Origin: Treponema sp.
GTDB taxonomy: Bacteria; Spirochaetota; Spirochaetia; Treponematales; Breznakiellaceae
Direction: 5' to 3'
DNA length: 36,849 nucleotides
Assembly: GCA_031273835.1 (NCBI GenBank)
Contig: JAISRD010000188.1
Location: 1-36,849 of the forward strand
Below, one piece after another: positions 21,577 through 31,502 of the stretch. Made by a program: the position numbers and the translations under genes. Below the pieces are notes generated by a model. It worked only from the letters and a program-made list of their open reading frames with translations. It searched no databases and had not been told where the DNA came from. The stretch's first letter is position 1; every line of letters starts with the position of its first letter.

Positions 21577-22776
21577 TTACTCTACGATTTCCACAACCTG
21601 GCCGGAAGCGACGGTTTTGCCCCCCTCACGGATGGCAAAACGGAGCCCCTTTTCCATGGCGATAGGATGGATCAGCTCGCCGAAGATTTCGGTATTATCG
21701 CCGGGCATAACCATTTCCTTGCCTTCGGGCAGTTCGACCGTACCGGTAATATCGGTGGTCCGGAAATAGAACTGGGGCCGGTAACCCTTAAAGAAGGGGC
21801 TGTGACGTCCGCCCTCTTCCTTGGAAAGACAGTAGATCTGACCCTTGAATTTGCTGTGGGGATTGATGGAACCGGGTTTTGCGAGAACCTGTCCGCGCTC
21901 CACTTCCTTCTTTTCTATGCCGCGGAGCAGGGTGCCGACATTGTCGCCGGACTGGGCCTGATCAAGGAGCTTGTTAAACATTTCAATGCCGGTAACAACG
22001 GTCTTCTTGGTAGGTCTAATGCCGACGATTTCGATTTCTTCGCCGAGCTTGAGTATGCCCCGCTCCACCTTGCCGGTAACGACCGTACCGCGACCGGGTA
22101 TCGTAAAGACATCCTCGATGGGCATGATGAAGGGCTTCGCATCGTCCCGGATAGGATCGGGGAAATAGCTGTCCATGGCGTCGAGGAGTTCCTGAATACA
22201 GCCGGTATCTTCGTTTTCCTCACCCTTATTGAGGGCCTCCATGGCCTTAAAAGCGGAACCCTTAATAATGGGAATCTCATTGCCGGGGAAACCATTGGCG
22301 GTAAGCACATCCTTGACTTCCTCTTCCACGATTTCCAGCAGATCCGGATCGTCCACCGCGTCAATCTTGTTGAGGAACACAATGATATTGGGGACCCCTA
22401 CCTGGCGGGCCAGAATGATATGCTCCCGGGTCTGGGGCATAACCGAATCCGGCGCGGAAACGACAAGAACGGCGCCGTCCATCTGGGCCGCCCCGGTGAT
22501 CATGTTTTTAATGTAGTCCGCGTGGCCGGGACAGTCGATATGGGCATAGTGCCGCTTATCGGACTGATATTCCAGGTGCCGGGTATTGATAGTGATGCCC
22601 CGGGCCTTCTCCTCAGGAGCATTATCAATATCATCAAATTTCATGACCTTATCACCGTAGTGCTTTCCGCAGTACATTGTGATGGCTGCGGAAAGGGTGG
22701 TCTTGCCGTGGTCAACATGTCCTATGGTGCCCACGTTCATGTGGATCTTTGTTCTATTGAACTTATCCTTTGCCAT
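21577..22776 (-). CDS. tuf: Elongation factor Tu
   Basis: [40 protein letters not shown]; 399 aa. Confidence 0.97.
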
Positions 22777-22939
22777 TACTTCTTCCTCCTCAATATATTA
22801 AAGCCAAAATACATTCACTTCTCACGCCGAACCGAAAAGGTTTTTAAGGAGGGGACGAAAAGACAAGCATAACCCCGGAGGGATAACAAGACTATCGTTC
22901 CACCTATCCCATCAAAACTGATGATCGGTTTGGACATCC

Positions 22940-22984
22940 GGCAATTGCCAGGGGCAATTACCATAATTTGCTAAAGCAAATTAT
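22940..22984 (-). repeat. Two abutting perfect or near-perfect hairpins/palindromes immediately downstream of rpsG
   Basis: GGCAATTGCC (22940-22949), agg, GGCAATTACC (22953-22962). The first copy is self-palindromic, so in the mRNA sense the pair forms a 10-bp stem with one G.U and a 3-nt loop. This is followed by ATAATTTGCT-aa-AGCAAATTAT (22963-22984), a perfect 10-bp inverted repeat. Confidence 0.6.
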
Positions 22985-22994
22985 CTATGGCCCT

Positions 22995-23465
22995 TTACCA
23001 CCTATAATGGGCAAAGGCCTTATTTGCCTCCGCCATTTTATGCGTATCCTCACGCTTTTTGAAGGCCGTTCCGGTGCTATTATACGCGTCCAGCAACTCC
23101 GCCGCAAGCCTGTCTCCCATGCCGCGGCCGGTACGGCTCCTGGCGGCGTTGATAATCCACCGCATACCAAGGGCTTCCCGCCTGATCTCCCTGATCTCCA
23201 CAGGAACCTGGTAGGTAGCGCCCCCGACCCGCCTGGATTTAACCTCCACCATGGGCTTTACATTATCAATGGCCTTGAGAAACACCTCCAAAGGTTCTTT
23301 TTCCACCTTTGACTGGAGTATCCCCATGGCTTCATGGACGATACGGAGGGACACGGAACGTTTACCCTCCCACATCATACGGTTTACAAATTTAGAAACC
23401 ACCACGCTGTTGTATTTAGGATCCGGAAGTATGCCCCGGTCCACCGTTTTCTTCTTCCTGCCCAT
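22995..23465 (-). CDS. rpsG: 30S ribosomal protein S7
   Basis: [28 protein letters not shown]...[11 protein letters not shown] (156 aa). The 94-aa upstream extension in the ORF track overlaps rpsL out of frame and is rejected. Confidence 0.95.
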
Positions 23466-23470
23466 AACGC

Positions 23471-23845
23471 CTATGCCTTTGGCCGTTTGGCGCCGTATTT
23501 TGAACGGCTCCGCTTGCGGTCTTCCACGCCAAGGGTATCCTTGGCGCCCCTGATAATGTGGTAACGGACCCCGGGGAGGTCCTTTACCCGGCCGCCCCTG
23601 ACCAGAACAACCGAATGTTCCTGCAGGTTGTGGCCTATGCCGGGAATATAGGCGGTAACCTCGGTCCCATGGGAAAGCCGTACACGGGCAACCTTGCGGA
23701 GGGCCGAATTCGGCTTTTTGGGCGTAACGGTCATCACCCTGGTACAAACCCCCCGCTTTTGAGGGCAGGATTGCAGGGCCGGTGACTTTGTTTTGGAAGT
23801 GATCTTCTGCCTTCCAAAACGGACCAACTGGTTGATCGTAGGCAC
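23471..23845 (-). CDS. rpsL: 30S ribosomal protein S12 (GTG start)
   Basis: [13 protein letters not shown]..., [30 protein letters not shown]. An AAGGAG RBS lies 6 nt upstream of the GTG at 23845. Confidence 0.95.
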
Positions 23846-24162: not shown

Positions 24163-24807
24163 ATGAAGGAAATAGAAAACTCCGGATACGGGTCCCTCCG
24201 GGCCTCTTTCCTGGAGTTCCGTGAAAAATACCGGGAGCGGAAAGAAGAAATCCGGGCCCTCCTTGCGAAAACAGAGGCCGCAAAGAGGGAAACCCTTGGA
24301 TTTCTAAAAAAGGCAAACCGCTGTACCCGGTATTTAACCGGAAAACAAAGGCGGGAAACGGGAATTTTGTACCACCCCGGTTTTTTTGATTCCCGCATCA
24401 GAGGGCATACCCGGCCTGTCCCCGTTACCCCTTCCTCCCCCGATCTGAAAAGGGAAATTCCGCCGGAATTTCCCGGAAAAAAGCTCCCCCGGGAGCTAAA
24501 GGAGGAAGAAATAAAACTGCTCCGCCTTATCAATTCCCTAAAAAAAGAACTTTTAGCCCTGGATCTCCTGGAAATGCGGTGCCGGGAACTGCTTCTTTCG
24601 GCCGCAAAAGCCCTGGAAGCGTTTACCCATGAATACCGCCTCATACGCCGCCGTATCTACCCCTTCAGGTTCTTCAGCGCCCTCTCCAAATCCTTCCGTC
24701 GCCTGCGGGGGCTTTCTTATTTTTCGTCCGGGGATCTGCGGGAACTGACGGTTCTGGGGGAGCTTACCGGCCATGTAGTAAAAATAGCCGATTCACCGGT
24801 ACTATAA
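24163..24807 (+). CDS. Hypothetical basic coiled-coil protein (214 aa), no recognisable family
   Basis: An ATG ORF downstream of the strong promoter. It has a K/E/R-rich helical N-terminus, a Pro-rich linker (HTRPVPVTPSSPDLKREIPPEFPGKKLP) and a helical C-terminus (RRRIYPFRFF). No signal peptide or TM segment. The antisense ORF is a Ser/Arg/Phe-rich shadow. Confidence 0.6.
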   Translation: MKEIENSGYGSLRASFLEFREKYRERKEEIRALLAKTEAAKRETLGFLKKANRCTRYLTGKQRRETGILYHPGFFDSRIRGHTRPVPVTPSSPDLKREIPPEFPGKKLPRELKEEEIKLLRLINSLKKELLALDLLEMRCRELLLSAAKALEAFTHEYRLIRRRIYPFRFFSALSKSFRRLRGLSYFSSGDLRELTVLGELTGHVVKIADSPVL

Positions 24808-24841
24808 AAAAGACCGATACTAAAAGAAACAGAGGAGCGGA

Positions 24842-25222
24842 ATGCCGGGTAAGCACATAGCCAAGATATTGAAAAACGCCGCCCCCATTCCCGCCGAGGA
24901 AATTCCCCGGTTTTTTGAACTGCTCCTGGAATGTCAGCATGAATCGGAAATAACCAAACGGGAAATAGAAAAACTATCCTCCATGAAGGAGGTGATGATC
25001 CGGGAGATCACCGGAAAGTACAGTTTTTATGAATTTTTCTTTAACCGGATCTTTGCCGAACGCCAGGAAGCGATAAAAAAAGACTTTGAGATAATTGATA
25101 AGGGCATAAAGGAGAATAACCGTGAACTGCTGTCCGCGGGGATCTCCGGCCTCTCCCAGGTGGTGGCCTCAAGCCCCTTTACCGACCTGGACAAGCTCCG
25201 TAAAATGCTTGAATCCTTTTAG
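24842..25222 (+). CDS. Hypothetical helical protein (126 aa), no recognisable family
   Basis: An AGAGGAG RBS lies 4 nt upstream of the ATG, 34 nt after the preceding gene. It is helical, rich in charged residues, and has no motif I can recognise. Confidence 0.6.
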   Translation: MPGKHIAKILKNAAPIPAEEIPRFFELLLECQHESEITKREIEKLSSMKEVMIREITGKYSFYEFFFNRIFAERQEAIKKDFEIIDKGIKENNRELLSAGISGLSQVVASSPFTDLDKLRKMLESF

Positions 25223-25420: not shown

Positions 25421-26830
25421 TTAAGTACCGCGCTCCGCCGCCGCTTCCAGGGCCGCCCTGATCCGCTCCGTTTCGTTTTCCGCCCCCCCGTATTCGGCGA
25501 GGATACGGCTTACTTTTTCGTAGCCCAGTACCGGCACATAGGACGCGGCAAAGGCACGGGAAGCGTTGAGCAGGGCGGCGCAGCGCTCGGGGTCGGCCTT
25601 GAGGGTTTCCACGCATTTGGTACGGAAAAGGAAACAGCCGTCTTTAAGGAGGCTTAGGCTTTCCAGCAGCGCGTCGGCCATGAGGGGGGCAAAGGCGTTC
25701 AGTTCAAATTCCCCACGGGAGGCGGCCATGGAGATCGCAGCGTCGTTGGCGCAGATCTTGATGCCCAGTTGTATCACCATTTCGGGGATCACGGGGTTGA
25801 CCTTACCCGCCATGATCGTGCTTCCCTTTTGAAGCGGGGCCAGGCGGATCTCGGCGAAGCCCCCACGGGGGCCCGAATTCATCAGCCTGAGGTCCCCGGC
25901 TATCTTCATCAAGTTCACCGCCAGGGCTTTAAGGAGTCCCGATACTTCCACAAAGACGTCCCAGTTCTGGGTCAGGTCCATGGGGTACTCCGCCGCCGCC
26001 AGGCCTATGCCGGTGATCCTCCGCAGTTCCTCGACGACCCGGTGGCGGTAACGGCGGAACGCCGCGGTATCCCCGGCCTTTGCAGCCGCGCCGCCCGCCC
26101 CGGGGCCCGCAAGGAAACCGGGGCCCCCCACCGCCGCGCCGCCGAGGTTTACCTGACGGAGCCTTTCTTCCACCTTGTAAAGCCGCCACCTGTCCCGGGC
26201 TATGGCCTGGGCGTAGGCGCCGAATTCCTCCCCCAGGGTAACGGGCACGGCGTCCATGAGCTCGGTGCGGCCCAGCTTACCTATACCGGCGTATTCGTTT
26301 TCTTTTTTTTGCAGGGCCTCCTGGAGGGCGGCGCAGGCTTCGGAAAGCTCCCGTAAAAGTTCGACGGCGGCAATGCGGAGCGCCGTGGGGTACACGTCGT
26401 TGGTGGACTGGAAACGGTTCACGTCCTCCAGGGGATGAAGGGCGCCGTAATCGCCGGGTTTCTTCCCCATGATGACCAGGGCGAGGTTGGACAGCACTTC
26501 GTTGACGTTCATGTGGGCCGAGGTTCCCGCCCCGCCCTGGAGGGCGCTGGTGATAAAGTCGCCGTCCGCTTTTCCGGCCAGGACCCTGTCGCAGGCTTCG
26601 GCGACGGCGCGGAATTTTTCCGCCTCCCCCGGCCTTTCCCCGGTTTCGGCGTAGAGTTCGGCGAAGACCAGGGCGGCGGCTTTCTTTACCTTTACCATGG
26701 CGTAAATAAGGCGGAGGTTTACCCTTTTATAGTCCAGGGCGAAATTCTCCCCCGCCCGGGCGGCTTCCAAACCGTAGAGGGCCTCATCGGGAAGGGATAA
26801 GGACCCCAGCCCGTCCTTTTCGATACGCAT
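25421..26830 (-). CDS. Aspartate ammonia-lyase-like protein (fumarase/aspartase lyase_1 superfamily)
   Basis: GAGTSAHMNVNEV, FQSTNDVYPTA (aspartase-type STND) and SS-loop signature GSTIMAGKVNPVIPE. It starts 5 nt after the hydF stop. Confidence 0.8.
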   Translation of the reverse strand: MRIEKDGLGSLSLPDEALYGLEAARAGENFALDYKRVNLRLIYAMVKVKKAAALVFAELYAETGERPGEAEKFRAVAEACDRVLAGKADGDFITSALQGGAGTSAHMNVNEVLSNLALVIMGKKPGDYGALHPLEDVNRFQSTNDVYPTALRIAAVELLRELSEACAALQEALQKKENEYAGIGKLGRTELMDAVPVTLGEEFGAYAQAIARDRWRLYKVEERLRQVNLGGAAVGGPGFLAGPGAGGAAAKAGDTAAFRRYRHRVVEELRRITGIGLAAAEYPMDLTQNWDVFVEVSGLLKALAVNLMKIAGDLRLMNSGPRGGFAEIRLAPLQKGSTIMAGKVNPVIPEMVIQLGIKICANDAAISMAASRGEFELNAFAPLMADALLESLSLLKDGCFLFRTKCVETLKADPERCAALLNASRAFAASYVPVLGYEKVSRILAEYGGAENETERIRAALEAAAERGT

Positions 26831-26834
26831 CGCC

Positions 26835-28085
26835 TTAAACGCCGTCCAGTTCGGCCAGGATATGGGGGAAGACGGCGATACAGCGCCTGAGTATGCCCTG
26901 GATGTGGGCGATGGCGACCCCGTAGTTGGTAAAAGCTACGCGCTGATCGGCGGCGCAGTCCCGGCGGTAACGCAGTTCCCTGTCGTTGAGCATACAGGCG
27001 CCGCAGTGGATTATCATCCTAAAGGGAGAAAGATCTTCGGGAAAATCCCCGCCGGAGCTGAAAACAAATTCCGGCCTTTTCCCCGTGTGCTGTTTTATCC
27101 ACCGGGGGAGTTTTACCGTGCCGATGTCGTCGCACTGCCGGTGATGGGTACAGCCCTCGCAGATCAGCAAGCGGTCCCCGTCCTCGATGCGGTCAAGGAC
27201 CGCCGCTCCCCGGACCGCGGGGGCGAGGAAACCCTTGTACCGGGCGAAGAGTATCGAAAACGAGGTGAGGGGTATGTCCTCGGGCGTATCGGCGGAGACC
27301 TTGGCAAAGACCTGGCTGTCGGTGATTACCAGGGCGGGTTTTTTCCCGATATTTTCCAGGGTTTCCCGCAGCTCGAATTCCTTGACCACCACGGCCGCCG
27401 CGTCCGCTTCCAGTATGTCCCGTATGGTCTGCTGCTGGGGAAGGATCAAACGGCCCCTGGGGGCGGCTTTGTCGATGGGGGTTACCAGTACCACAAAATC
27501 GCCGGGCCGGATCAGGTCCCCGGCGATACGGAGTTTCGGTTCTTCAGGTTTAGCCAGGGCGGCCATACGCTCCTTGAGCAGGTCAATGTTGAAGCCCGTC
27601 TTCGCGCTGACCAGGAGGGCGTTGTCCGGTCCCGCCGGGCCGCCGGCAGGTTCCGCCGCGGCGGCGCTTCCCGGTCCCGCCGGGCCGTCAAGTAAATCGC
27701 TTTTATTGTACGCGGTAATCCAGGGGATGCGCTTTTCCTGAAAAAGGGCGGCCAGTTCCCGGTCGGCGGCGCTTAAGCCCGCGGGGGCCTCCGTTACCAG
27801 TACGGCCAGATCGGTCCTGTTAAGAACCTGTTTGGCCTTCCGTACCCGCAGTTCCCCCAGGGGCCCTTCGTCGTCAAAGCCCGGCGTATCTATGATCAGC
27901 ACCGGCCCCAGGGGGAGCAGTTCCATGGCCTTGGAAACGGGATCGGTGGTGGTTCCCTTGATTTCCGAAACAACCACAAGGTCCTGGCCGGTAACGGCGT
28001 TTACCAGGCTTGATTTGCCGGCGTTTCTCCGACCGAAAAAACCGATGTGGACCCGGCCGGCCGCGGGGGTGTCGTTAAGGCCCAT
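26835..28085 (-). CDS. hydF: [FeFe]-hydrogenase H-cluster maturation GTPase HydF
   Basis: GTPase motifs G1 GRRNAGKSS, G3 DTPG, G4 NKSD. The C-terminal FeS motif is CEGCTHH ... 45 residues ... HCGAC (the CxHx(44-53)HCxxC pattern). Confidence 0.85.
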   Translation of the reverse strand: MGLNDTPAAGRVHIGFFGRRNAGKSSLVNAVTGQDLVVVSEIKGTTTDPVSKAMELLPLGPVLIIDTPGFDDEGPLGELRVRKAKQVLNRTDLAVLVTEAPAGLSAADRELAALFQEKRIPWITAYNKSDLLDGPAGPGSAAAAEPAGGPAGPDNALLVSAKTGFNIDLLKERMAALAKPEEPKLRIAGDLIRPGDFVVLVTPIDKAAPRGRLILPQQQTIRDILEADAAAVVVKEFELRETLENIGKKPALVITDSQVFAKVSADTPEDIPLTSFSILFARYKGFLAPAVRGAAVLDRIEDGDRLLICEGCTHHRQCDDIGTVKLPRWIKQHTGKRPEFVFSSGGDFPEDLSPFRMIIHCGACMLNDRELRYRRDCAADQRVAFTNYGVAIAHIQGILRRCIAVFPHILAELDGV

Positions 28086-28087
28086 AC

Positions 28088-28945
28088 TTAGACCGGTATT
28101 TCAAAAACCCCTTCAAGGATGTGCCGGGGCTGATAGGGATAGCGGTTTACCTCCTCCAGTCTGGTTACTCCTGAAAGTACCAGAACGGTTTCGATCTCCG
28201 ACTCGACCCCGGCCTGAATATCCGTATCCATGCGGTCCCCGATTATGGCCGTTTCTTCCCGTTTAACGTTAAGCCTGCGGAGGCCGTGCCGCATCATCAG
28301 CGGATTGGGCTTTCCCACAAAATAGGCCTTCTTACCCGTGGCAAGTTCTATGGGGGCCACCAGGGCGCCGCAGGCGGGTACGATGATCCCCCCCTCAATG
28401 GGGCCGCTCAGGTCGGGGTTTGTTCCGATAAGCCGGGCGCCGCCTTCAATAAGCTTTACCGCCCGCTCAAGAGCCTCAAGGCTGTAACCCCGGCCCTCGC
28501 CGACCACCACATAATCGGGATTCACGTTGTTCATCGTAAAGCCCGCGTCGTAGAGGGCCTGGATCAGCCCCGGCTCGCCTATGGCGTACACCGACCCGCC
28601 GGGCCGCTGGGAGGCAAGAAAACCCGCCGTGGCCAGGGCGCTGGTGTAAAAGTGTTCCGGATCAACGTTGATCCCCAGCCGTGAAAGCTTTTGGGACAGT
28701 TCCAGCGGAGAGCGTTCGCTGGAATTGGTAAGGAAAAGGAAGGCCTTGTTATTGGCCTCCATCCATTCCACCAGTTCAAGAGCGCCCTTAAGGAGCTGAT
28801 TTCCATGGTAGATCACCCCGTCCATATCAATGATAAAGGCCTGCTTGGACCTTATCTGATCAATATCCGGTTTCATATACAAACTATAATCTTCTTTTAC
28901 TCCGGTTTGCAATGCCCCGTTGAAATCAAAAGGCCGTTCTTGCAT
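28088..28945 (-). CDS. HAD-IIA (NagD-like) sugar/nucleotide phosphatase
   Basis: FIIDMDGVIY (DxDG), FLTNSS, GKPNP, GDRMDTDI. The alternative ATG at 28876 would give 262 aa, which is closer to typical NagD length, and it is preceded by a promoter-like element (see next feature). Confidence 0.8.
   Translation of the reverse strand: MQERPFDFNGALQTGVKEDYSLYMKPDIDQIRSKQAFIIDMDGVIYHGNQLLKGALELVEWMEANNKAFLFLTNSSERSPLELSQKLSRLGINVDPEHFYTSALATAGFLASQRPGGSVYAIGEPGLIQALYDAGFTMNNVNPDYVVVGEGRGYSLEALERAVKLIEGGARLIGTNPDLSGPIEGGIIVPACGALVAPIELATGKKAYFVGKPNPLMMRHGLRRLNVKREETAIIGDRMDTDIQAGVESEIETVLVLSGVTRLEEVNRYPYQPRHILEGVFEIPV
28883..28912 (-). promoter_or_regulatory. Candidate promoter giving a leaderless transcript from the alternative HAD start (28876)
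   Basis: The reverse strand reads TTGCAA (28912-28907), 18 nt, TATAGT (28888-28883), 6 nt, ATG (28876). Confidence 0.3.
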
Positions 28946-29002: not shown

Positions 29003-29521
29003 ATGATAAAAGAATCCATCGCAAAGGCCCTCAGCGAGCAGGTCAACGCCGAATACTATTCGGCCTATCTGTACCTTGCCATGTCGGCCCACGCGGACAG
29101 GGCCGGTTATAAGGGCATAGCAAACTGGCTTTTTGTTCAGGCCCGGGAGGAGACGGCCCACGGGACCCATCTGTATCAGTATATTCTTGAACGGGGGGCC
29201 TCTCCCGTCTTCAAGGATATTAAAGCGCCGGAACTGTCCTTTTCAGGGGTTACGGAAATTTTTGAAAAGGTTCTGGCCCATGAACGGTATGTAACGGGGC
29301 TTATCAATAAAATTGCCGGATTGGCCCAGGAAGAACAGGATCACGCGGGCTATAACTTTATTATGTGGTATGTGAATGAGCAGGTAGAAGAAGAAGCTAC
29401 TGCGGATGAACTCCTTACCAAGATCAGGATGGCGGAAAATTATCCCGGCCTGCTCTTTACCATTGACGCCGAACTGGGGAACCGGACCTTTGTCGATCCC
29501 TTTGGGGGGACCGCCGGCTGA
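29003..29521 (+). CDS. ftnA: Non-haem bacterial ferritin
   Basis: LSEQVNAEYYSAYLYLAMS, ferroxidase ligands in REETAHG and WYVNEQVEEE, 172 aa, with a GGAG RBS at 28991. Confidence 0.88.
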   Translation: MIKESIAKALSEQVNAEYYSAYLYLAMSAHADRAGYKGIANWLFVQAREETAHGTHLYQYILERGASPVFKDIKAPELSFSGVTEIFEKVLAHERYVTGLINKIAGLAQEEQDHAGYNFIMWYVNEQVEEEATADELLTKIRMAENYPGLLFTIDAELGNRTFVDPFGGTAG

Positions 29522-29531
29522 GCTCCCTCCC

Positions 29532-31502
29532 ATGATAGTCGTACTTTCCAGGGGCATTTCATCCTACGATAAAGAATTGGTCCGCATTTATCTGCGGGAC
29601 CGGGGCTTTGCGGTCCGGGACCAGCAGTTCGGCGACGATGAGGTAATCGGCGCGGCGGGCAAGGGGGTCCTCGATCTGCGGGAACTGGGGCTGCTTCCCG
29701 GTGTGGAACGGGTTGCCGCCACCAGCAAACCCTATGAACTGGCCTCCCGGGAAACCAAGGCGGAGGATACCATTGTCAGCGTCGGCGGAAGCGGGGGAAT
29801 GGTAAAGATAGGCGGCTCCCGGATCACCGTGATTGCCGGACCCTGCGCCGTGGAAAGCAGGGAGCAGATACGGGAGACCGCCGCCCGGGTGCGGGAATCC
29901 GGGGCGGTGCTGCTGCGGGGGGGGGCCTTTAAGCCCCGGTCCAGCCCCTATGCCTTTCAGGGCCTGGGGATGAAGGGCCTTGAGTACATGAAGGAAGCGG
30001 GGGACGCCGAGGGGATGCCTATTGTTACCGAGGTGGTTTCCCCCGAATATGTGGTGGAGATGAAGGACCTTACCGATATGTTCCAGATTGGGGCCCGGAA
30101 TATGCAGAACTTCGCCCTCCTGAAAAAAGTGGGTTCCGTGGGAAAACCCGTGCTCTTAAAGCGGGGGCCCTCGGCGACCATTGAAGAATGGCTCCTCTCG
30201 GCGGAATATCTGCTTGCGGCGGGGACCAACGACGTGGTGCTCTGCGAGCGGGGTATACGTACCTTTGAAACCTATACCCGTAATACCCTGGATATTTCGG
30301 CGATTCCCGTGGTGAAGACCCTTTCCCATCTTCCGGTCATTGTCGATCCCAGCCACGCCGTAGGCATACGGGCCAAGGTCGCCCCGGCGGCCCTGGCGGC
30401 CATCGCGGCGGGGGCCGACGGCCTTACCGTGGAAGTCCATCCCCGGCCGGACGAAGCCCTCTCCGATGGCCCCCAGTCCCTTTACCCGGAACAGTTTGAA
30501 AAGCTTATGCGGGACATTGAAGCCCTGGCCCCGGTGGTGGGGAAGGAACTGCTCCGTACGCCGCGGCCTGAGGGAACGGCGGCGGGCAGGCGGGGGGGCC
30601 CGCAGGCGGGCAGCCTCTTTGAGGGATTTACGGCTTTGCCCGTGGCCTATAACGGGGAAAGCGGGGCCTTTGCCGAACAGGCGCTGATGCGTATTTTCGG
30701 GGAAGACGTAAAGCGCAGGCAGGTCCAGTCATTCAAGGAGGTCTTTGACGCCGTGCTGGACGGTTCGGTCTGCGCCGGGGTGATGCCGGCGGAGAACAGC
30801 CTTTCGGGGAGCATCCATGAAAATTACGATCTCTTTCTGAGGTACCCCGATATTGCCATCGTGGGGGAACTTAAACTCAGGATCGTACACTGCCTTATAG
30901 GGGATGAACACGCCCGTTTGGACACGATTTCCATAGTCCGCAGCCATCCCCAGGGTTTTGCCCAGTGCAAGGAATTCCTGGACAAGTATCCCGGATGGCA
31001 GCTTGAGGCCTGCAACAATACCGCCGCGGCGGTGGCCTCAATCGCCCGGGAAGGGGCCGTTAAGGTGGCGGCCATTGCCGGCGCCGCCGCCGCCAGGGCC
31101 CACGGATTAAAGGTGTTGAAGGAAGGGATTGAGACCAACCCCCTCAACTATACCCGTTTTCTTATTATCAGCAGAAAAATTTCCGGCAGGGATGGAGAGT
31201 GGTTCGGCAATGCCTGGGTTCCCCCCAGCCTGGGTTCGGAAAAGCCCAACAAGGCAAGCCTGGTATTCTCGGTCCCCGATAAACCCGGATCGCTTTTTGC
31301 CTGCCTCAAGATCATGGCCGACCGGGGGATCAACCTTTCCAAGCTCGAATCCCGGCCCATTCAGGGAAAGCCCTGGGAATACCAGTTCTACGCGGACGTA
31401 TCCCTCCCGGAAACCGAGGGGGATTTTGCCCTGATCATGGAAGAGTTAAAAACCAAAACCGAGGACTTTAGATTTTTGGGCGCTTACCGGGGTTCGCTTT
31501 AA
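29532..31502 (+). CDS. Fusion protein: N-terminal ACT/ferredoxin-like regulatory domain + type I-beta DAHP synthase + prephenate dehydratase + C-terminal ACT domain
   Basis: The start MIVVLSRG... matches my recollection of the N-terminus of Thermotoga-type regulated DAH7PS. DAHPS blocks: IAGPCAVES, LRGGAFKPRSSPYAFQGLG, FQIGARNMQNF, KRG, CERGIRTFE, VDPSH, VEVHP.P..ALSDG. PDT blocks: VAYNGESGAFAEQA, MPAENSLSGSI, SHPQGFAQC, TRF. ACT block: KASLVFSVPDKPGSLFACL...ESRP. The upstream extension in the ORF track overlaps ferritin and is rejected. Confidence 0.85.
   Translation: MIVVLSRGISSYDKELVRIYLRDRGFAVRDQQFGDDEVIGAAGKGVLDLRELGLLPGVERVAATSKPYELASRETKAEDTIVSVGGSGGMVKIGGSRITVIAGPCAVESREQIRETAARVRESGAVLLRGGAFKPRSSPYAFQGLGMKGLEYMKEAGDAEGMPIVTEVVSPEYVVEMKDLTDMFQIGARNMQNFALLKKVGSVGKPVLLKRGPSATIEEWLLSAEYLLAAGTNDVVLCERGIRTFETYTRNTLDISAIPVVKTLSHLPVIVDPSHAVGIRAKVAPAALAAIAAGADGLTVEVHPRPDEALSDGPQSLYPEQFEKLMRDIEALAPVVGKELLRTPRPEGTAAGRRGGPQAGSLFEGFTALPVAYNGESGAFAEQALMRIFGEDVKRRQVQSFKEVFDAVLDGSVCAGVMPAENSLSGSIHENYDLFLRYPDIAIVGELKLRIVHCLIGDEHARLDTISIVRSHPQGFAQCKEFLDKYPGWQLEACNNTAAAVASIAREGAVKVAAIAGAAAARAHGLKVLKEGIETNPLNYTRFLIISRKISGRDGEWFGNAWVPPSLGSEKPNKASLVFSVPDKPGSLFACLKIMADRGINLSKLESRPIQGKPWEYQFYADVSLPETEGDFALIMEELKTKTEDFRFLGAYRGSL

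Follow-up and report, generated by a model that had tools for sequence, protein, structure and literature searches.

Organization of the hydF locus

The 36,849-nucleotide contig JAISRD010000188.1 of Treponema sp. (assembly GCA_031273835.1), referred to here over its whole length as the window, carries hydF, which encodes an [FeFe]-hydrogenase maturation protein, between a gene for a HAD-IIA phosphatase and a gene for an aspartase-family lyase. All three are on the minus strand and form an apparent three-gene unit, the parts of which are listed in the order of transcription.

28088..28945, minus strand: HAD-IIA phosphatase gene, NagD-like, 285 amino acids; first gene of the apparent unit
28086..28087, minus strand: 2 nt spacer between the HAD stop codon (TAA) and the hydF start codon (ATG), read from the sequence
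26835..28085, minus strand: hydF, [FeFe]-hydrogenase H-cluster maturation GTPase and scaffold, 416 amino acids
27611..27670 (approximate), minus strand: Gly/Ala/Pro-rich expansion of the loop between the G4 (NKSD) and G5 (SAK) motifs of HydF, from alignment with 11 relatives
26831..26834, minus strand: 4 nt spacer between the hydF stop codon (TAA) and the lyase start codon (ATG), read from the sequence
25421..26830, minus strand: hyd-linked aspartase-family lyase gene, 469 amino acids
26066..26140 (approximate), minus strand: Gly/Ala-rich insertion in the lyase, at about residues 231-255, from alignment

The HAD/hydF junction reads ...GTC TAA GT ATG GGC... and the hydF/lyase junction reads ...GTT TAA GGCG ATG CGT..., and hydF and the lyase gene are probably translationally coupled. 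A preliminary description of this DNA had reported three genes separated by 2 and 4 nt and followed upstream by a divergently transcribed ferritin gene, and the open reading frame (ORF) coordinates and the junction sequences bear this out. It had also reported that hydE, hydG and hydrogenase genes are absent from the window, which agrees with our searches: there is no tblastn match to hydE or hydG anywhere in the 36.8 kb, and no hydrogenase domain in the scanned window ORFs of at least 150 amino acids. Genes of the gcvH or gcvT type, for the glycine-cleavage H- and T-proteins, are likewise missing from the window. A scan for promoters and terminators returned no more sites than are found in shuffled sequence, and a search of public sequencing runs turned up none that contains this stretch. 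The nearest homologues of the lyase, at 76-77% identity, come from metagenome-assembled genomes (MAGs) of Treponema and Spirochaetaceae, and the locus has cultured relatives in Leadbettera azotonutricia ZAS-9 and Treponema primitia ZAS-10.

The HydF protein

HydF scores 534 bits against the TIGR03918 equivalog model (cut-off 326) and contains the MMR_HSR1, HydF_dimer and HydF_tetramer domains, corresponding to GTPase, dimerisation and tetramerisation/cluster functions. Its nearest solved structures are all of HydF proteins (5LAD, 3QQ5 and 5KH0, from Thermotoga neapolitana and Thermosipho melanesiensis), with which it shares the three-domain layout and the CxH...HCxxC motif. The GTPase motifs GRRNAGKSS, DTPG, NKSD and SAK and the cluster motif CTHH...HCGAC are kept in all 12 aligned sequences.

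The protein differs from the Thermotoga and Thermosipho HydFs by an expansion of the G4-G5 loop by about 17 Gly, Ala and Pro residues, at a position that is variable among all termite treponemes. The stretch concerned, GPAGPGSAAAAEPAGGPAGP, lies between NKSD and SAK, so that the alignment confirms an insert noted earlier between G4 and G5. Both the length and the sequence of the loop differ in every aligned lineage among the 11 relatives, and it is longest in the window and in loci L005 and L006. The low-complexity inserts of HydF and of the lyase fit a GC-rich loop expansion (local GC 0.63) that has no functional meaning.

The lyase belongs to a hydF-associated clade of aspartase-like proteins

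The lyase matches Pfam Lyase_1 at 216 bits; FumaraseC_C is not matched, because the C-terminus is about 20 residues shorter, a property of the core-clade lyases described below. Its best NCBIfam match is the aspartase subfamily NF008909 at 502 bits, 8 bits short of the cut-off of 510, which three other clade members pass with 531-557 bits. We attribute the shortfall to the Gly/Ala insert of the window lyase, which occupies a loop position. The closest relative (locus L002) has this insert too, and loci L003 and L009 have it in a shorter form; most clade members lack it, as do E. coli AspA and FumC. The nearest solved structure is AspB of Bacillus sp. YM55-1 (1J3U, E = 9e-94). AspB (also 3R6V) and E. 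coli AspA (1JSW) are of the same Lyase_1 fold family, and the alignment with them runs over residues 1-446.

The residues with which aspartases and fumarases may be told apart are of the aspartase type. All 120 homologues examined have QGGAGTS and QSTND without any variation, and E. coli AspA has the same two motifs, whereas E. coli FumC differs at these positions. The fumarase-type counterparts are QTGSGTQ and QSSND. The signature motifs of the window lyase are GRTELMD and GSTIMAGKVN, the latter being its version of the SS loop (GSSxMPxKxN type), in which the catalytic first Ser, the Lys and the Asn are kept but the second Ser is replaced by Thr and the Pro by Ala. GRT and these catalytic residues, like QGGAGTS and QSTND, are held in common with AspB and AspA.

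Against this background the lyase and its closest homologues carry a signature of their own. Following the Thr of GRT there is a Glu (residue 190 of the window lyase; 119 of the 120 homologues) in place of the His of AspB or the Gln of E. coli AspA, then a Met two residues further on (Met192), so that the core motif is RTE(L/M)MD; GST replaces GSS in 110 of the 120. The Ala for Pro in the SS loop, the Gly/Ala insert and the shortened C-terminus further set the window copy apart from AspB and AspA. In a library of representatives at 50% identity the lyase matches its own cluster at 593 bits, with the next full-length single-domain representatives following at about 400 bits and 47-54% identity.

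The hydF-linked lyases were placed in maximum-likelihood trees (quick search, with SH-aLRT supports) together with 70 representatives, Bacillus AspB and the E. coli proteins AspA and FumC. A single clade (70 rows, support 99) takes in every hydF-linked lyase, E. coli AspA and Bacillus AspB both lie outside it, and nested within it is a core clade of 36 rows (support 100) that includes the window lyase. Judged by its sequence, the lyase is aspartase-like at every residue checked, yet belongs to a separate family of hydF-associated paralogues, and we predict that this paralogue is an aspartase.

Fusions of the lyase to other domains were sought among the long representatives. None joins it to a hyd domain as a Rosetta-stone protein, the partners being cNMP-binding, malic enzyme, peptidase S51, CoaE and PNPOx domains. 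We note one unusual fusion in the representative library, the 1420-residue protein P0122, in which two Lyase_1 and two FumaraseC_C stretches are combined with cyclic-nucleotide-binding domains; it is unrelated to hyd genes.

Linkage of hydF and the lyase gene

Two surveys, one starting from each gene, show how often the pair is found together. Among 80 species-representative genomes with the closest HydF proteins (58-75% identity), the lyase gene lies at most 89 nt from hydF on the same strand in 27, and in 24 of the 72 loci that have at least 1.5 kb of sequence downstream. Where about 10 kb are available on both sides (31 loci), the lyase gene is present in 12 and hydE or hydG in 10; the lyase gene without either hydE or hydG occurs in 10 of these 31 loci, and the isolated hydF-lyase pair is therefore a common arrangement. 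The reciprocal survey started from the closest lyases (80 loci, 47-77% identity); of the 74 loci that are assessable, 66 have hydF within 400 nt of the lyase gene. Two further loci have hydE or hydG near the lyase gene. Chance adjacency of two given genes should be below 0.1% in a genome of about 3000 genes, and the linkage observed, whether counted from hydF or from the lyase gene, is far above chance. The carriers belong to Spirochaetota, Bacillota, Thermodesulfobacteriota (including Desulfovibrio) and Campylobacterota, to which the survey by HydF adds Lentisphaerota.

Termite-gut MAGs of Helicobacteraceae, Desulfovibrio, Desulfarculales and Peptococcaceae (loci L261, L296, L303, L257 and L274) have sequences that nest among or beside those of termite Treponema, and do so in the lyase tree as well as in the HydF tree. 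This suggests that hyd maturation genes have been exchanged horizontally within the termite gut community.

Split hyd clusters in termite treponemes

Three layouts are seen in the termite treponemes. The gene order is hydF-lyase-TM1266-hydG-hydE in T. primitia ZAS-10, and in L. azotonutricia ZAS-9 with an extra flavodoxin-like gene; in a second layout hydF-lyase and TM1266-hydG-hydE are at separate places; and in a third, hydF-hydG-hydE, the lyase gene is absent. The first of these looks ancestral, and separation of the hydF-lyase pair from hydG and hydE is common in this group. The ZAS-10 and ZAS-9 clusters have the same hydF-then-lyase order and strand as the window, with HydF 72-75% and the lyase 66-69% identical, but they continue directly downstream into the TM1266-like gene, hydG and hydE, whereas the window cluster is split and has a HAD gene upstream. 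The extra gene of ZAS-9 (locus L001, 9522-10001) encodes 159 amino acids and lies between hydF and the lyase gene, overlapping both by a few bases.

Three assemblies have hydF apart from hydG, with hydG on another contig. Two of them, BNUY01 and BNUR01, contain the hydF-lyase pair, and their hydG contigs also carry TM1266 and hydE. The third, JAIROH01, has HAD-hydF on a contig that ends about 670 nt past hydF, before a lyase gene could be seen, and its truncated hydG locus shows hydG only. Fragmentation beyond that of the window is seen in one Treponema subclade (loci L270, L286, L290 and L254), in which the hyd-type lyase gene is solitary, hydF being absent from the 8 kb around it; the assemblies of L270 and L286 carry TM1266-hydG-hydE on another contig (hydG loci L187 and L177). 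An apparent insertion in many hydG genes, with matches of 1.9-2.1 kb (L169, L175-L177, L183, L184, L197-L199 and others), proved to be an artefact: hydG is about 1.4 kb throughout by tblastn, and the longer ranges arise because of cross-matching to the adjacent radical-SAM gene hydE.

The HAD-IIA gene is rarely associated with hydF

The HAD protein scores 142 bits against TIGR01460 (HAD-SF-IIA, cut-off 100) and 237 bits against the NagD equivalog NF007762, for which the cut-off is 368. It has all four catalytic motifs (DMDGV, LTNSS, GKPNP and GDRMDTD), which it shares with E. coli NagD (2C4N), another HAD-IIA protein and its nearest solved structure (E = 9.5e-59). It belongs to an unnamed subfamily whose members are 60-81% identical across several anaerobe phyla. 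We note that this widespread phosphatase subfamily is unusually well conserved, over at least six such phyla, and that it falls below both the NagD and the TIGR01457 cut-offs.

The 80 loci of its closest orthologues (L086-L165, within that identity range) come from Spirochaetota, Bacillota, Bacteroidota, Lentisphaerota, Verrucomicrobiota and deltaproteobacterial MAGs. In none of the 80 is there a hydF, lyase or hydE gene within 6 kb. A HydG-like radical-SAM match in one locus is only 32% identical and is not a hydG. The substrate was sought through conserved neighbours, and no gene family recurs in more than six of the 80 loci.

A HAD gene lies directly upstream of hydF in three places only: the window, Treponema sp. 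Gsp477_bin110 (L003, the same as L244) and Treponema sp. Cd354_bin69 (L005). It is next to hydF in none of about 150 other hydF or lyase loci examined, and is absent from the closest lyase relative (L002, the same as L242). The two other carriers group as sisters in the HydF tree, within a 15-member clade that also contains the window, and a single origin of the linkage is possible. The HAD partner, which the preliminary description had left unexplained, can thus be described as a lineage-specific neighbour of hydF.

Breznakiella homolactica gives an evolutionary context for this arrangement. In that genome some 4 kb separate the HAD orthologue (80% identity) from a DAHP-synthase/PDT gene (79% identity), and the two genes have the same divergent orientation as in the window, but there is no hydF there; the HAD gene ends its own transcription unit and is followed by convergent genes. 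Since this neighbourhood is shared with a genome in which it lacks hydF, the HAD gene is in its ancestral place and the hydF-lyase pair is the newcomer. As a gene that is conserved broadly and on its own, the HAD gene is most likely a bystander beside hydF, without a role there, and the most economical reading of the arrangement is that a promoter has come to be shared by an accident of rearrangement.

Flanking genes

The gene next to the HAD gene is transcribed divergently from a gap of 57 nt and lies outside the unit.

29003..29521, plus strand: ferritin gene (PF00210, 132 bits; NF007638)

Ferritin as a source of iron for cluster assembly was considered and rejected, as the gene is beside hydF or the HAD gene in no related locus. 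The remainder of the window contains a ribosomal-protein and rpoA region, relA, prmC, an ABC ATPase gene, a DAHP-synthase/prephenate-dehydratase fusion and an efflux-type operon. The fusion gene (29406-31502, plus strand) is a single ORF combining DAHP_synth_1, PDT and ACT domains. Two ORFs of 214 and 126 amino acids (24163-25222, plus strand) are convergent to the lyase gene and fill the interval from there to rpsL; no Pfam or NCBIfam match was obtained for either, and the pair forms an orphan cassette at the place where rpoB and rpoC might be expected. On the far side of it (21577-23845, minus strand), rpsL and rpsG are followed directly by tuf, without fusA between them, the rpsG-tuf spacer being 218 nt.

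Possible roles of the locus

The association of hydF with aspA has been reported by Pagnier et al. (2024, J Biol Chem 300:107760, PMC11736057), who found aspA, ilvA or sdaA within 20 ORFs of 79% of authentic hydF genes. In a defined, lysate-free in vitro maturation, E. coli AspA together with 15N-aspartate placed 15N in the dithiomethylamine (DTMA) bridge of the H-cluster, and the route given for the nitrogen is through NH4+ into the aminomethyl-H-protein of the glycine-cleavage system (PMC11736057). Aspartase-like genes beside hyd genes had been noted before, in the Pelobacter carbinolicus genome paper (2012) and in a 2016 paper on Sulfurospirillum cavolei and Desulfovibrio vulgaris, in both cases without a proven role. 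The statement in the preliminary description that such genes recur beside hydE, hydF and hydG is therefore correct, while its qualification that no role had been proven is now outdated; later HydF papers in our literature search do not alter the published picture. The window resembles the system of Pagnier et al. in having an aspartase-family gene adjoining hydF, with NH4+ release proposed for the DTMA bridge via the H-protein, and differs in that hydF and the lyase gene are detached from hydE and hydG and have a HAD gene in front of them. Those authors defined aspA neighbours by Pfam domains and make no mention of paralogues, Treponema or a phosphatase.

We interpret the locus, with a probability of about 0.72, as half of a divided set of [FeFe]-hydrogenase maturation genes in a Treponema-like spirochaete of the termite gut, in which a dedicated ammonia-lyase accompanies hydF and the HAD gene is a bystander. 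HydF would be the GTPase that serves as scaffold for completion of the 2Fe subcluster, and the lyase, co-expressed with it, would cleave aspartate to give fumarate and NH4+. Next, the T- and H-proteins of the glycine-cleavage system would take up the NH4+ to form aminomethyl-lipoyl-H-protein, and this would provide the CH2-NH-CH2 bridge of the DTMA ligand at HydF. By analogy with close relatives, the genome would be expected to carry hydG, hydE, the small TM1266-like gene and the hydrogenase genes at other places. The hydF-lyase pair would have come to sit behind the HAD gene in one small treponeme lineage, where that gene probably only lends a promoter. The idea that a lyase joined to hydF supplies ammonia for the NH bridge of the azadithiolate, put forward in the preliminary description, is supported and coincides with the published model, the ammonium-to-DTMA step of which is known in vitro; that the lyase supplies the nitrogen of the H-cluster in vivo is what we infer from it. 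Of the findings named in that description as telling against the idea, a linkage at chance level and a grouping of the lyase with housekeeping AspA are contradicted by the surveys and the trees, and loss of hydG is contradicted in three close relatives.

Several observations weigh against this interpretation. The window lyase scores 389 bits against the aspA equivalog TIGR00839, well below the cut-off of 681, and the three other clade members scored against NF008909 also fall short of it (413-457 bits). The changes peculiar to the clade adjoin active-site residues (E190, M192 and the Thr in place of the second Ser of the SS loop) and are accompanied by the shortened C-terminus. The enzyme used by Pagnier et al. 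was the housekeeping AspA of E. coli, which lies outside the hydF-linked clade, and our literature search found no published assay of any enzyme within it. That the three genes are co-transcribed is suggested by their spacing. As to the HAD gene, the HAD-hydF-lyase trio is kept with spacings of 0-11 nt in three species-level genomes with differing flanks, which leaves some likelihood of a functional link.

In a rather different account, the hydF-linked lyases are not interchangeable aspartases but a dedicated additional maturation factor. It derives from the distinct clade, the combination of RTE(L/M)MD, GST and a short C-terminus, and the finding, which holds over several phyla, that lyase and hydF are inherited together in about 90% of loci. 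A factor of this kind might dock on HydF or on the aminomethyl-H-protein and deliver ammonia on the spot, or might act on a substrate other than free aspartate. We regard this account, along with its weaker corollary that the HAD gene has joined the module in one treponeme lineage, as tentative and on balance unlikely. The opposite departure, that the lyase is a catabolic aspartase whose position reflects coordination of aspartate fermentation or fumarate production with hydrogen metabolism rather than nitrogen supply to the H-cluster, was proposed in the Pelobacter carbinolicus genome paper; it is consistent with the ordinary aspartase character of the substrate-binding residues and with the remark of Pagnier et al. 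that fumarate can act as an anaerobic electron acceptor. It appears improbable, as the linkage is specifically to hydF (66 of 74 loci) and not to hydrogenase structural genes or dicarboxylate transporters, it persists where the hydF-lyase pair is split from all other hyd genes, and 15N from aspartate does reach DTMA via an aspartase in vitro.

Recruitment of the HAD protein as an accessory of H-cluster maturation, as a phosphatase either of the nucleotides GDP and GMP at HydF or of pyridoxal phosphate (PLP) or another phospho-metabolite in the serine/glycine-cleavage branch, would account for the persistence of the trio amid differing flanks and for its close spacing (2 nt in the window, an overlap in L003 and about 11 nt in L005); the nearest characterised relatives do include the nucleotide phosphatase NagD and PLP phosphatases. 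We nevertheless think it very improbable given the exception-free survey of 80 orthologues, with neither hyd genes nor any other recurrent gene nearby, the many hydF and lyase loci that lack a HAD neighbour, among them that of the closest lyase relative, and the signs from Breznakiella that the gene is in its old place. Least probable of all, and hardly to be expected, is that the genome no longer has hydE, hydG or any [FeFe] hydrogenase, so that hydF and the lyase gene would be relics or would serve some other purpose. The contig has neither hydE nor hydG nor a hydrogenase gene, and Pagnier et al. mention HydF-like proteins without hyd neighbours, but both ORFs are full length with their GTPase, Fe-S and lyase catalytic motifs intact, HydF is far above its equivalog cut-off, and the three relatives in which hydF is apart from hydG have hydG on other contigs, two of them together with hydE and TM1266.

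Under the interpretation that we prefer, a split maturation set with a lyase that provides ammonia, the window adds one more, and ordinary, example of a split cluster, from an uncultured spirochaete, to a hydF-aspartase arrangement for which the ammonia-donor explanation is already in the literature (2024). The E. coli AspA that was tested in vitro is, however, not the paralogue that travels with hydF, and the published model would gain in precision if a lyase linked to hydF were tested directly. The HAD gene should not be counted as a hyd accessory, either in annotation or in the prediction of function from gene neighbourhoods.

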